Translations under genes and position numbers: made by a program | Notes under the pieces: model-generated | The model's input: only the letters and a program-made list of their open reading frames with translations | Told to the model about the DNA's origin: nothing | Database searches by the model: none | Part shown: in pieces, positions 1 through 2,308 of the stretch | How the letters are laid out: each line of letters starts with the position of its first letter | Numbering within the stretch: the stretch's first letter is position 1 | Assembly: GCA_000004695.1 (NCBI GenBank) | Contig: CH709167.1 | Span: forward strand, 1-2,308 | Source of the DNA: Dictyostelium discoideum | Lineage: Eukaryota | Length of the DNA stretch: 2,308 nt | Direction of reading: 5' to 3'

Positions 1-262
1 TTAATCTGATTTCGGACCCTCCGGATTTGAAATGGGAATTGGGTTTGGCATCAGCTTGAAGTTTGGAAGCAGATGGACTTTTAATCCATTTACGACTTCT
101 TGACAAAAGTTTGGAAGACCCAATTCTTTCCAAACTTGTTTGTGGTGGAACAGACGTCCACCTACTGGTAAGTTTACTTCTTGTTCTTCTGAAAACGGTT
201 GTTGGTACCGTTGGAAGACTTGGTATTGTTGCTACCTGATGCAACATTACTTGGTGATCCAT
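1..262 (-). CDS. Minus-strand open frame from the ATG at 262 to the window edge (87 codons, no stop): MDHQVMLHQVATIPSLPTVPTTVFRRTRSKLTSRWTSVPPQTSLERIGSSKLLSRSRKWIKSPSASKLQADAKPNSHFKSGGSEIRL…. It may be spurious.
   Basis: A stop-free run of 87 codons is unlikely by chance (about 0.5%). However, the composition is basic and S/R/K/P/T-rich, the codon usage is mixed, and the ATG lies only 20 bp from the nearest TATA-like element. The region has a repeated TTGGAAG(AC) motif at 61-70, 111-120 and 211-220, which may keep frames open. Confidence 0.2.
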   Translation of the reverse strand, partial: MDHQVMLHQVATIPSLPTVPTTVFRRTRSKLTSRWTSVPPQTSLERIGSSKLLSRSRKWIKSPSASKLQADAKPNSHFKSGGSEIRL

Positions 263-321
263 TTTTAAGAAAATAAAAACGTATAAATAGTGGCACTAAA
301 AACTAAAACAATTTGATTTAT
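261..321 (+). repeat. Copy 1 of a 61-bp exact direct repeat (atttttaagaaaataaaaacgtataaatagtggcactaaaaactaaaacaatttgatttat). With an 8-nt indel it extends to the shared 'ggaattcc' at 330-337.
   Basis: It is identical to 2105-2165. It contains TATAAATA at 282-289 and lies about 140-200 bp upstream of the ATG at 458. Confidence 0.9.
282..289 (+). promoter_or_regulatory. TATA box (TATAAATA), candidate core promoter for the gene starting at 458.
   Basis: It is a consensus TATA element about 170 bp upstream of the ATG on the coding strand. The intervening sequence is AT-rich with no ATG in a good context. Confidence 0.4.
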
Positions 322-457
322 TTTATTTGGGAATTCCTCCTATATATATTCAAGATACACACACACACAAATTTTATACAAATAATTATTTCTCTTTATT
401 AATTTTTAATATTATTTTTTTTTCTCATATTATAATTTTAGATATCAACAATAAAAT

Positions 458-574
458 ATGTCTACCACTGTTAATAATAATGAAGCCTCTAGTAGTAGTA
501 CCTCTGCCTCTAATAGCGCTGAATCCTTTGATTTAAGAATGAAATCAATGGAGGATCAAATCAACAACAATTGA
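458..574 (+). CDS. N-terminal segment in frame 2 (MSTTVNNNEASSSSTSASNSAESFDLRMKSMEDQINNN*), 38 codons, ending at a TGA at 572-574.
   Basis: Apart from 1031 and 2291, this is the only true ATG with good context upstream of the long ORFs. Its Ser/Asn-rich composition is typical of a yeast N-terminus. Frame 1 is simultaneously open from 532, so a single T gain at 'aattg' (to 'aatttg', 569-573) would fuse the two segments. Confidence 0.4.
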   Translation: MSTTVNNNEASSSSTSASNSAESFDLRMKSMEDQINNN

Positions 575-1092
575 ATAATCATACGACACCACCATCATCA
601 CCCAACATTACAACACCAATAACTTCAGCAGCAATAACCAACACAATAAAGAAATCATTAGGAAAAATTAAAACTGATGATACCGACCACCAGTTGTTAC
701 ATGGTAGCTTCTCTTCTGGTTGTAAAGTCTGTACAACTAATCAAGGTATCCTCTATGGTATTGAGGAAGAAAAAGAAAACCTGATGTTCAAATTCATTGG
801 ATCTTCACCAAACAAGCCAGCTGGAAGTACTTTTGCCAATACTAGCTCCAGAGAAGATGTTCAAGTTATGTGTATCAAGAGATATGGTATTATCGTGTCC
901 AAAGATATTGGTTCAACTATTTATCAATTGGCAAGAAGTAATAATACCGAAACCGAAACCGTCTTAGATGATCTCATTGAAACAGGAAAGTTCGACGAAG
1001 AACTATCAAGATTAGTCTCCTGTGTAACCGATGGAATTAATGGTATTATTTCAACTTGGAATGAAAGTAGAACAATTAGAGTTTTCCAATAA
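571..1092 (+). CDS. Main frame-1 segment of the hypothetical protein, 173 aa. Frame 1 is open from 532 and has no ATG of its own; the track start is TTG.
   Basis: This is the longest ORF in the window and has yeast-preferred codons. It is probably continuous with the 458 ATG segment after a 1-nt frame correction. I recognise no domain. Confidence 0.55.
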   Translation: MNNHTTPPSSPNITTPITSAAITNTIKKSLGKIKTDDTDHQLLHGSFSSGCKVCTTNQGILYGIEEEKENLMFKFIGSSPNKPAGSTFANTSSREDVQVMCIKRYGIIVSKDIGSTIYQLARSNNTETETVLDDLIETGKFDEELSRLVSCVTDGINGIISTWNESRTIRVFQ

Positions 1093-1387
1093 AGTCCGTG
1101 TTCGTTTATTCATGAAGTTATACAACAAGAAAATTCAACACGAGCTCGCTACCAGTGCAAATGCTGTCTACAATAATTCAATTGGGTGGAATGAATTCAA
1201 ATTGGCTGTACAACAAGAGATTTCAATTGGTGAACAATATAATCTCCAAAAGCTCAAGAAGATGTTAGTCATTTCATTTAATGTCCAAGGTAACGTAAGT
1301 ATTAGTGAACACTCTAAAGCTTTCATAAAAAACGTTAACCAATTAAGAAATACCCAAATCAGTTTCCAAATGACGCTGTCCTGTTAG
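1031..1387 (+). CDS. Frame-2 segment of the same hypothetical protein, 118 aa. Frame 2 is open from 1028.
   Basis: It overlaps the end of the frame-1 ORF by about 60 nt with both frames open. A one-base change in the T run at 1081-1085 ('gttttcc') would join ...TIRV to SNKVRV.... Confidence 0.5.
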   Translation: MELMVLFQLGMKVEQLEFSNKVRVRLFMKLYNKKIQHELATSANAVYNNSIGWNEFKLAVQQEISIGEQYNLQKLKKMLVISFNVQGNVSISEHSKAFIKNVNQLRNTQISFQMTLSC

Positions 1388-1524
1388 GATGGTATTTCGA
1401 GACGTTACCAATCCAAGTAAAGGATTCAGATGCAGCATCTACCATCGTTACTTCAGGAACCAATTTGATAGGAGGAATAGGTAGAAGTTATCAACAAGCA
1501 ATCGTTGGTAACATTAACCTCTGA
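1339..1524 (+). CDS. Frame-1 open stretch of 62 codons (PIKKYPNQFPNDAVLLGWYFETLPIQVKDSDAASTIVTSGTNLIGGIGRSYQQAIVGNINL) that bridges the two frame-2 ORFs. It may be coding, or it may be intron sequence.
   Basis: It is the only stop-free frame across 1388-1480 and has a protein-like composition. It also lies inside the candidate intron at 1295-1574. Confidence 0.25.
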   Translation, partial: PIKKYPNQFPNDAVLLGWYFETLPIQVKDSDAASTIVTSGTNLIGGIGRSYQQAIVGNINL

Positions 1525-1786
1525 TATCGGTAGAAACGAAACCGATGCTACTAACAAATTTTATTCCGTTCTAGATTCTTATGTTCCAGTGAAGGAAGTA
1601 AGAATAAACCAAATACAAAATTATAGATTCAATAATTCCAATAGTCAAGGTCGTGCAGGTGGTTCCAATAATCAAGATGAATCTGATGGTCAATATCTTA
1701 GCAATGGATTCAACAATGGTTCAAGATTTAATAATGGCCAAAGATTTGATAATAACTCAAGGTTCTCTGGTAATCCAAGGTTTTAA
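1505..1786 (+). CDS. C-terminal frame-2 segment (open from 1481), Asn/Gly/Ser/Arg-Phe-rich (…NGFNNGSRFNNGQRFDNNSRFSGNPRF*).
   Basis: This is a 93-aa track ORF whose TTG start is not a real initiation codon. It ends at a TAA at 1784-1786, followed by an AT-rich terminator-like flank. Confidence 0.45.
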   Translation: MVTLTSDIGRNETDATNKFYSVLDSYVPVKEVRINQIQNYRFNNSNSQGRAGGSNNQDESDGQYLSNGFNNGSRFNNGQRFDNNSRFSGNPRF

Positions 1787-1925
1787 TATTGGCCCAAGAA
1801 GTTCCAATAATTATGATAGAAACTTAAAAATTTAATTTATTAAATTATATTTTATATTAAATATATATATATATATATATTATGAATAACATTTATTTAT
1901 TTGAATTTCCCAAATATTTAAGATA
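1787..1925 (+). terminator. AT-rich 3' flank of the gene, likely the 3' UTR and polyadenylation region.
   Basis: It carries TATATA-type and A-rich elements downstream of the TAA at 1786 (aataattatgatagaaacttaaaaatttaatttattaaattatattttatattaaatatatat). No discrete hairpin terminator is expected in a eukaryote. Confidence 0.3.
1826..1880. repeat. Left arm of a perfect inverted repeat: aaaaatttaatttattaaattatattttatattaa followed by (AT)10.
   Basis: Positions 1826-1876 are the exact reverse complement of 2200-2250 (51 of 51 nt). The arm begins inside the 3' end of the frame-3 ORF at 1833-1835. Confidence 0.85.
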
Positions 1926-1932
1926 ATTTTTT

Positions 1933-1952
1933 AGAATGTTCTAGAACATTCG
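1933..1952. promoter_or_regulatory. Heat-shock element, four perfect contiguous inverted nGAAn units: aGAAtgTTCtaGAAcaTTCg. It is also an 18-bp perfect palindrome, GAATGTTCTAGAACATTC.
   Basis: The alternating GAA and TTC triplets at exact 5-bp phase match the Hsf1 trimer site consensus, which needs at least 3 units. The element lies about 175 bp upstream of the TATA box at 2126. Confidence 0.5.
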
Positions 1953-1958
1953 AAGAAT

Positions 1959-2083
1959 AAAAAATTTTCGAAAGAAAAGTAAAAATTTCGAACCGGCACA
2001 ATGACGCGATCATTGTGTAAGGTCGAAAAACTGAAAAATTCCGAACCGACACTATGCACAAAGTTGTGAAGGGTCGAAAACTC
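1959..2083. repeat. Imperfect tandem repeat of about 50 bp. One partial unit (1959-1980) is followed by two units (1981-2033 and 2034-2083), each starting AAAAATT(T)(C)CGAACC and ending GGTCGAAAA(A)CT.
   Basis: Units A and B align at roughly 70% identity. CG-containing motifs (TTCGAA, CGAACCG, GGTCGAAAAC) recur in a region that is otherwise almost free of CpG. Confidence 0.6.
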
Positions 2084-2104
2084 TTATTTTTTGAGTTTTG
2101 CGAA

Positions 2105-2165
2105 ATTTTTAAGAAAATAAAAACGTATAAATAGTGGCACTAAAAACTAAAACAATTTGATTTAT
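2105..2165 (+). repeat. Copy 2 of the 61-bp exact direct repeat. It extends to the shared 'ggaattcc' at 2166-2173.
   Basis: It is identical to 261-321. It contains TATAAATA at 2126-2133, about 165 bp upstream of the ATG at 2291. Confidence 0.9.
2126..2133 (+). promoter_or_regulatory. TATA box (TATAAATA) in repeat copy 2, candidate core promoter for a downstream gene starting at 2291.
   Basis: It sits in the same sequence context as 282-289. An ATG at 2291 with A at -3 lies 165 bp downstream. Confidence 0.4.
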
Positions 2166-2179
2166 GGAATTCCGACTAA

Positions 2180-2195
2180 GGGCGGGTGGGATGGG
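2180..2195 (+). other. G-quadruplex-forming motif GGGcGGGtGGGatGGG (G3N1G3N1G3N2G3).
   Basis: Four G3 runs with 1-2 nt loops form a GC island inside sequence that is more than 85% AT, between the TATA box at 2126 and the ATG at 2291. Confidence 0.45.
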
Positions 2196-2199
2196 ACTA

Positions 2200-2250
2200 A
2201 TATATATATATATATTTAATATAAAATATAATTTAATAAATTAAATTTTT
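2200..2250. repeat. Right arm of the inverted repeat: (AT)8 followed by ttaatataaaatataatttaataaattaaattttt.
   Basis: It is the exact reverse complement of 1826-1876. Together the arms bracket the HSE, the tandem repeats, the TATA repeat copy 2 and the G4 motif. Confidence 0.85.
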
Positions 2251-2263
2251 AATTTATATTATC

Positions 2264-2289
2264 ATATATATATATATATATATATATAT
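2264..2289. repeat. (AT)13 microsatellite immediately upstream of the ATG at 2291.
   Basis: The run is seen directly. Further (AT)n tracts lie at 1861-1882 and 2200-2215, and (AC)6 lies at 357-369. Confidence 0.9.
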
Positions 2290-2290
2290 T

Positions 2291-2308
2291 ATGAAATTTG
2301 GACGACAG
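2291..2308 (+). CDS. Possible 5' end of a downstream gene (ATG AAA TTT GGA CGA CAG = MKFGRQ…), truncated by the window edge.
   Basis: The ATG has A at -3, and GC content rises abruptly after a long AT-rich leader. A TATA box lies 165 bp upstream and the HSE about 340 bp upstream. Only 6 codons are visible. Confidence 0.2.

Follow-up and report, generated by a model that had tools for sequence, protein, structure and literature searches.

The subject of this analysis is a stretch of 2,308 nt from Dictyostelium discoideum, positions 1 to 2,308 of the forward strand of contig CH709167.1 (assembly GCA_000004695.1), to which we refer, at its full length, as the window. A first-pass annotation had proposed that positions 458-1786 hold one gene, for a protein of ~440 amino acids (aa), that can be read only through four alternating frame changes. 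In all probability there is no single gene in this interval, and the locus is a piece of a D. discoideum transposon cluster, a mosaic of elements, in which the first codons of open reading frame 1 (ORF1) of the retrotransposon DIRS-1 (458-568) are joined to a gag remnant of a long terminal repeat (LTR) retrotransposon of the Ty3/gypsy type (561-1823), with further DIRS-1 sequence on either side.

Coding signal and the breakpoint at 561-568

The open segments on which the single-gene proposal was built are real. A six-frame stop map reproduced all five of them exactly, namely frame 2 at 455-571, frame 1 at 532-1089, frame 2 at 1028-1384, frame 1 at 1339-1521 and frame 2 at 1481-1783, all on the plus strand. 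To get across 458-1783 without a stop, the plus strand needs at least 4 frame switches and the minus strand 16, as against 10-29 (mean 18.3) in 500 dinucleotide-preserving shuffles. The tiling by long open segments is thus real and far beyond chance, and the region codes for protein or once did. Not to annotate it as three separate small genes was sound advice.

The first of the five segments belongs to a different element from the rest. Positions 458-568 (plus strand) are codons 1-37 of DIRS-1 ORF1 (MSTTVNNNEASSSSTSASNSAESFDLRMKSMEDQINN), and over the first 38 residues the identity to the N-termini of dozens of D. discoideum proteins of ~335 aa is 89-100%; some of these proteins are fusions to reverse transcriptase (RT; PF00078) or tyrosine-recombinase (PF00589) domains. 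By BLAST, DIRS-1 homology ends at 568 and gag homology starts at 561, and a three-way alignment of the window, a related gag fragment (L005, introduced below) and DIRS-1 ORF1 (alignment A2) shows that the 8 nt at 561-568, TCAACAAC, are common to both parents, that is, a microhomology. The two pieces are joined out of frame. Junction 1, which had been taken for a frameshift at a homopolymer, is therefore the boundary between DIRS-1 ORF1 and an unrelated element; the string 'aattg' cited for it does occur at 569-573, but it is not a homopolymer.

A protein search with the conceptually joined protein returned matches in Dictyostelium only, and not the affinity to Candida or Debaryomycetaceae that had been suggested. 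Beyond the DIRS-1 part there were 4 protein matches in the first search and ~10 more in an exhaustive HMMER search.

Relatives and identity of the gag remnant

At the nucleotide level, 561-1823 is 87-90% identical to three short Logan contigs (L007-L009), 73-80% to two loci of D. cf. discoideum (L002 and L003) and 66% to a locus of a wild D. discoideum (L006). A further locus, L005, on a chromosome arm of a second assembly, is 95% identical and covers the 5′ part of gag only. The Logan contigs come from SRR26869258, SRR28564541 and SRR26869257 and carry a gag variant that lacks the counterpart of window 864-1256; the indels that the window has at junctions 3-5 are all missing from them, and their sequence continues past the counterpart of 1823.

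The nature of the remnant is told by its relatives. In L003, the gag homologue (10001-10891) is followed directly by genes with zf-CCHC, RVT_1/RT_RNaseH and rve domains, within a unit bounded by direct repeats at 9992-10339 and 14911-15252 (348 nt, 97% identical) that start with TG and end with CA. The related protein P0080 carries a CX2CX4HX4C zinc knuckle (RCYKCGKEGHISREC), and zf-CCHC was flagged in L003 and L006 as well. Because of the element context in L003 and the knuckle in P0080, we identify 561-1823 as a gag remnant of a Ty3/gypsy-type LTR retrotransposon. The placement of gag upstream of RT, RNase H and integrase between direct repeats is seen in the relatives, not in the window itself. 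The zinc knuckle, too, is absent from the window, where homology stops at 1823, upstream of the knuckle; this copy is therefore filed as a truncated remnant and not as a functional member of its family.

The 5′ part of the remnant, 561-701 (plus strand, frame 1), is 95% identical to L005 8189-8326. Its counterpart in the relatives lies inside the LTR-like terminal direct repeat, which ends ...TTGTTACA, the end of the L003 repeat being the position that matches window 701; some 63-74 upstream gag codons of the relatives are missing from the window copy. Directly after the LTR-like repeat, at 702-713 on the plus strand and within the gag frame, the window has TGGTAGCTTCTC, which resembles a primer-binding site (PBS), for which a TGG signature is expected (PMC5006619). 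L003 reads ...TTGTTACA|TGGTAGCTTCTCTACC after its 5′ repeat copy, and does not do so after the 3′ copy. The internal gag coding remnant occupies 702-1823 (plus strand), with homology to L002, L003, L007 and L006.

The fragment of the same family at L005 8001-8326 looks like a solo repeat with 5′ gag sequence. It is surrounded by B-box/FNIP-repeat genes in tandem, bears the protein annotation ACTFIT_010762 (143 aa) and ends at the same ...TTGTTACA boundary, after which the host repeats follow.

Four private indels and the reconstructed frame

The frame changes downstream of the breakpoint are indels in the gag remnant. Frameshift 2 is the insertion of one T at 1049-1051, where the window has TTT and the relatives have TT (alignment A1, columns 501-510: window TTATTTCAAC, L002 TTA-TTCAAC, L003 TCA-TCCAAT). 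The L002 ORF at 6864-7343 reads ...DGINGLIQLGMKVEQLVFSNKVRV in one frame, and P0075 and P0076 likewise read through the site. A change of T-run length had been predicted at 'gtttt' (1081-1085), a string that is indeed there, but the extra T lies ~30 nt upstream of it. Frameshift 3, at 1361-1362, is a deletion of 1 nt: the window has TCAG, and the relatives have TCAAG, TCAAA or TCAAT (alignments A1 and A3), with the additional A between 1361 and 1362 present in all four relatives that cover the site (L002, L003, L007, L006).

Frameshift 4, at 1482-1483, is not a homopolymer slip at all; it is a deletion of 11 nt that removes the codons for LNEE (alignment A3: L007 ATAGGTAGGTTAAATGAAGAAG and L006 ...AAATTGAATGAGGAAG versus ATAGGT-----------AGAAG in the window). 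P0080, P0074, P0076 and P0077 all read ...RLNEEVI... or ...KLNEEVI... at this point. Frameshift 5, which had been missed, is the insertion of one T in TTTT at 1781-1784 (L007 CCAAGA-ATTAATATTGG versus window CCAAGGTTTTAATATTGG, alignment A3). L007 reads ...CNPRINIGPRNSNNYDRS... / ...PRINIGPRNSNNYDRS... across the site in one frame, L003 has a 4-nt gap there (alignment A1), which supports the same reading, and the TAA at 1784-1786 that had seemed to end the gene is a product of the inserted T. All four indels are placed on the plus strand.

Along the window the ancestral frame is accordingly frame 1 up to 1050, frame 2 for 1052-1361, frame 1 for 1362-1482, frame 2 for 1483-1783 and frame 3 for 1785-1823. 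The fifth shift and the continuation of homology in frame 3 invalidate the argument for a signature of compensated frameshifts, which was built on a gene with the same frame at its start and its end.

The four indels (+1, -1, -11 and +1 nt) are private to the window copy, each being absent from every relative that covers its site. With them undone, the remnant yields 1275 nt, or 425 codons without a stop, collinear with P0075 and P0080 (adjacent gene models of one strain) and also with relatives from D. cf. discoideum, D. citrinum and D. dimigraforme. Codons with synonymous differences only outnumber those with amino-acid changes by 73:55 against L002 and 79:52 against L003, an excess which shows that purifying selection acted on the reconstructed frame in the active period of the family. 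Every other copy that was examined is likewise broken, though not at the same places.

Hence 561-1823 is a genuine transposon pseudogene, in an ordinary transposon graveyard locus. The earlier suggestion of a recently inactivated pseudogene still free of in-frame nonsense codons is apt for 561-1823 and not for 458-1786 as a whole, since codons 1-37 are DIRS-1 ORF1 and the remainder is unrelated gag. Nor would correction give a complete protein of ~440 aa, as the gag piece is truncated at both ends.

DIRS-1 pieces on either side

The flanks were compared with a reference DIRS-1 copy of 4823 nt (L004 6552-11374; the published length is 4814 bp, PMC7192593). The reference copy has inverted repeats of 313 nt, an ORF1 of 335 aa that starts at L004 7001, and an RT and a tyrosine recombinase, encoded by genes with PF00078 and PF00589 downstream of ORF1. 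When its right end is reverse-complemented, element positions 1-313 match it at 99% identity with an offset of 27 nt, and the right repeat has 27 terminal nt more than the left.

The window begins with an inverted internal fragment of DIRS-1 (1-263, minus strand, element ~1628-1368), in which 3-263 is 97% identical to L004 8179-7919. Positions 263-174 on the minus strand hold the last ~30 codons and the stop of ORF1, and the minus-strand translation of 1-263, ...SNVASGSNNTKSSNGTNNRFQKNKK*, is the C-terminus of the 335-aa protein P0018. There follow, on the plus strand, the inner 61 nt of the left repeat (261-321, element 253-313) and the leader between the left repeat and ORF1 (322-457). Together with the ORF1 codons they form one match of 99% between 261-568 and element 253-560 (L004 6804-7111). 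The inverted fragment, ending at element 1368, and the left-repeat fragment, starting at element 253, overlap by 3 nt at 261-263; this overlap is a second illegitimate junction between DIRS-1 pieces.

On the other side of the gag remnant, 1824-2308 matches element 4823-4352 in inverted orientation with 96% identity and begins at the outer right terminus of DIRS-1. The outer 27 nt of that terminus (element 4823-4797) lie at 1824-1850 on the minus strand and form the insertion boundary by which gag is cut short; the divergence of L007 from the window sets in exactly after 1823 (alignment A3). The right inverted terminal repeat follows at 1851-2165 (minus strand); being inverted, it reads like a left repeat and is 97% identical to element 1-313. 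Beside it lies internal DIRS-1 sequence (2166-2308, minus strand), including the internal complementary region at ~2200-2295. The window thus holds element 253-313 at 261-321 and the whole right repeat with its 27-nt extension at 1824-2165, and the terminal inverted repeats, the ORF1 layout and the internal complementary region of DIRS-1 are all found.

The repeats in the window are largely accounted for by these pieces. The 61-nt direct repeat, 261-321 and 2105-2165, is 100% identical because both copies are the same part of the DIRS-1 terminal repeat. The inverted repeat I1 (1821-1876 versus 2200-2255; 56 nt, 98% complementary) is the known complementarity of the right end to the internal complementary region, with a published length of 55 nt (PMC7192593). 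Runs of (AT)n at 1860-1880, 2200-2216 and 2263-2290, in the DIRS-1 terminus and the internal complementary region, are the source of most short direct and inverted repeats in the window.

Two promoter-like motifs lie in the DIRS-1 pieces. A TATA-like TATAAATAG at 283-291 is inside the left-repeat piece, and a run resembling a heat-shock element, GAAtgTTCtaGAAcaTTC, with four alternating units, lies at ~1925-1945 within the inverted terminal repeat. The repeats of DIRS-1 were described in the 1980s as heat-shock promoters. In the truncated left repeat at 261-321 the TATA-like box is kept and the heat-shock-element-like run is not. An Rfam scan of the window gave nothing at the gathering score. 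A TRE5-A element, an early candidate from sequence alone, was dropped once the protein search pointed to DIRS-1.

Discussion

Our reading of 458-1786 as two unrelated transposon pieces, the second of them a frameshifted gag pseudogene, has to be weighed against accounts in which the locus is a gene. The one first considered, that the frame changes are homopolymer errors of sequencing or assembly in an intact gene, draws on the fact that two of the four indels are a single T in runs of 3-4 T and that the source contig is a small unplaced repeat contig. However, window 3-2308 (2306 nt) is found at 100% identity and without gaps in a second assembly, GCA_054883475.1 (L001 9546-11851), as part of a 43.8-kb contig that extends well past the window on both sides. 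Of the other lesions, one is an 11-nt deletion and another the loss of a single base from AA, and junction 1 is the boundary of two different elements. Even if every indel were corrected, no intact gene would result, since coding homology is cut off at either end. The perfect match in the second assembly, the 11-nt deletion and the transposon breakpoint together make sequencing error very unlikely.

A second account would keep the shifts and make them functional, either as programmed ribosomal frameshifts or as part of a chimeric DIRS-1::gag gene that has been domesticated and is expressed. Programmed frameshifting is indeed known from retrotransposons, and for ORF2/ORF3 of DIRS-1 itself a +1 shift has been suggested (PMC5006619); moreover, the TATA-like box and the DIRS-1 leader are kept upstream, and the reconstructed frame is without in-frame nonsense codons. 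Yet the shift sites are common to no relative, and every relative that covers one reads through it in a single frame, which refutes programmed frameshifting. Such an arrangement would also require four or five consecutive shifts plus a breakpoint, for the sake of a gag without N-terminus and zinc knuckle; among the annotated proteins found, only the laboratory lineage carries this copy, and the other copies are broken elsewhere. We regard a functional chimera as highly improbable.

The weakest account takes the out-of-frame stretches, including the distal pair singled out by the first-pass annotation, for short introns, as both gene predictors did in models P0001 and P0002, but it is refuted, and barely conceivable, because these stretches align as uninterrupted coding sequence in the relatives (LIQLGMKVEQLVFSNK in the L002 ORF; VSISEHSKAFIKNVNQLRNTQIK, LNEEVINKQSLV... 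in P0080 and P0074), are composed like the flanking coding sequence rather than being extremely AT-rich, and are placed differently in the two models.

Several points weigh against the reading of a dead gag copy confirmed by a second assembly. The independence of assembly GCA_054883475.1 is something that we infer: judged by its species labels and number of genomes, it agrees with the de novo Nanopore plus Illumina set in PMC12745789 and is probably AX2-214, but no paper citing the accession was found. AX2 and AX4 moreover share a recent laboratory ancestor, such that the identity between them confirms the sequence and says nothing of evolutionary conservation. For a dead copy it is a mild surprise that 425 codons hold no nonsense codon beside four indels, the chance being ~0.1 by our own rough estimate. 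Finally, a Pfam scan of the conceptually joined protein found no family at E<=1, and AlphaFold models, though all-helical, are weak (pLDDT 67 for window 1052-1360, and 43, which is unusable, for P0080), so that no capsid fold is shown; Foldseek with the model of 1052-1360 found no match in the PDB with E<=0.001.

As to how the mosaic may have arisen, the left junction would be the result of microhomology-mediated illegitimate recombination, or of template switching during reverse transcription, and at the right junction DIRS-1 would truly have integrated into the gag element. Once the copy was dead, the indels would have accumulated neutrally. If the residual DIRS-1 promoter still drove transcription, translation would be expected to end after 38 residues, at the TGA at 572-574, and no gag-derived protein would be made.

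The significance of these findings lies mainly in annotation. The protein P0002 is the hypothetical protein DDB_G0294302, partial, of D. discoideum AX4. Models P0002 and P0001 span window 532-1786 in the two assemblies, and P0002 joins ...DGIN|VRVRLF... where P0001 joins ...STWNE|IRVRLF.... DDB_G0294302 and its counterpart ACTFIT_009742 are gene-finder artefacts, in which real frameshifts are bridged by invented introns, and both should be flagged as a transposon-derived pseudogene rather than as a hypothetical protein. The locus further illustrates the growth of a DIRS-1 cluster through insertion of element into element and through microhomology joins. None of this will surprise a specialist.

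More speculative is the question to which LTR family the remnant belongs. Three such families are described for D. discoideum, namely Skipper-1, Skipper-2 (= DGLT-P; 8 copies, all degenerate) and DGLT-A (Spaller et al. 2016, PMC5006619). The integrase of L003 has a GPY/F motif, ...VEGDNVYLQELNTGAHPIRKLDIRRAGPYTVPKL (...RRAGPYTVPKL), that is unlike those of Dd_Skipper-1, Dd_Skipper-2 and Dd_DGLT-A in Fig. S1 of PMC5006619; exclusion from the named families is provisional, as it draws on this one integrase motif and not on Repbase consensus sequences. With the L003 integrase as query, no AX4 protein came up at E<=1e-20, and all matches were proteins of wild isolates and sister species. We therefore raise, tentatively and as something that we would ourselves rather doubt than assert, the idea that the gag remnant represents a fourth lineage of Ty3/gypsy elements in the D. 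discoideum clade, beyond the three families of PMC5006619. The laboratory strain would keep only relics of it (the window locus and L005 8001-8326), with fuller copies in cryptic sister species, and its gag ORF would run from the very start of the terminal direct repeat, with a sequence like a tRNA-primer-binding site, TGGTAGC, inside the gag coding sequence. If this assignment is true, the transposon catalogue of D. discoideum gains one relic lineage.

The terminal structure of the relatives deserves some comment in this context. In L003, the gag ATG lies ~10 nt into the terminal direct repeat, such that ~110 gag codons are encoded by the repeat, and the 3′ repeat contains the last few nt of the integrase ORF. 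Upstream of the repeat, ~250-280 nt are conserved in L005 7428-7709, L003 9511-9785 and L002 8071-8310. In L005 and L003 this stretch reads AACCCTATCGGCTGAG...TATAAAA...CGATAGGGC, with a TATA box and an inverted repeat, and it is not found at the 3′ repeat copy of L003. Either the true LTR is much longer and the 3′ end of L003 is rearranged, or the terminal structure is unusual.

Comparison with known elements

Ty1 of Saccharomyces cerevisiae has the start of its gag ORF (TYA) within the 5′ LTR and carries the PBS, TGGTAGCGCC, inside the coding sequence of gag. The relatives of the remnant resemble this layout in that their gag ATG is near the start of the terminal repeat and TGGTAGC... follows directly after the repeat. 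The likeness is one of analogy only: Ty1 is copia-type and belongs to another superfamily, the comparison is one of layout, and the conserved sequence upstream of the repeat in L003 and L005 leaves the limits of the LTR provisional.

Among the dictyostelid families, DGLT-A differs in the sequence after the repeat, which is TGGTAGCTTCTC in the window (TGGTAGCTTCTCTACC in L003) and not the DGLT-A PBS TGGCGACATCGTCTTTC. Insertion next to tRNA genes, as in Skipper-2 and DGLT-A, was not seen, ARAGORN having found no tRNA genes in L001-L003 and L005-L007. A polypyrimidine tract beside the left LTR is a trait of Skipper. There is a likeness to the Skipper elements in that the copies lie mostly beside DIRS-1 sequence and are degenerate, as described for these elements (PMC5006619). 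With dictyostelid Ty3/gypsy elements in general, the relatives of the remnant share a gag upstream of the CX2CX4HX4C knuckle, RT, RNase H and a DDE integrase, all between direct repeats.

The three DIRS-1 pieces of the window differ from the known element in that all are incomplete and of mixed orientation, and the ORF1 piece ends after codon 37. Nevertheless, window 1-568 and 1824-2308 are 96-99% identical to the 4823-nt copy of DIRS-1, a tyrosine-recombinase retrotransposon that forms centromeric clusters.

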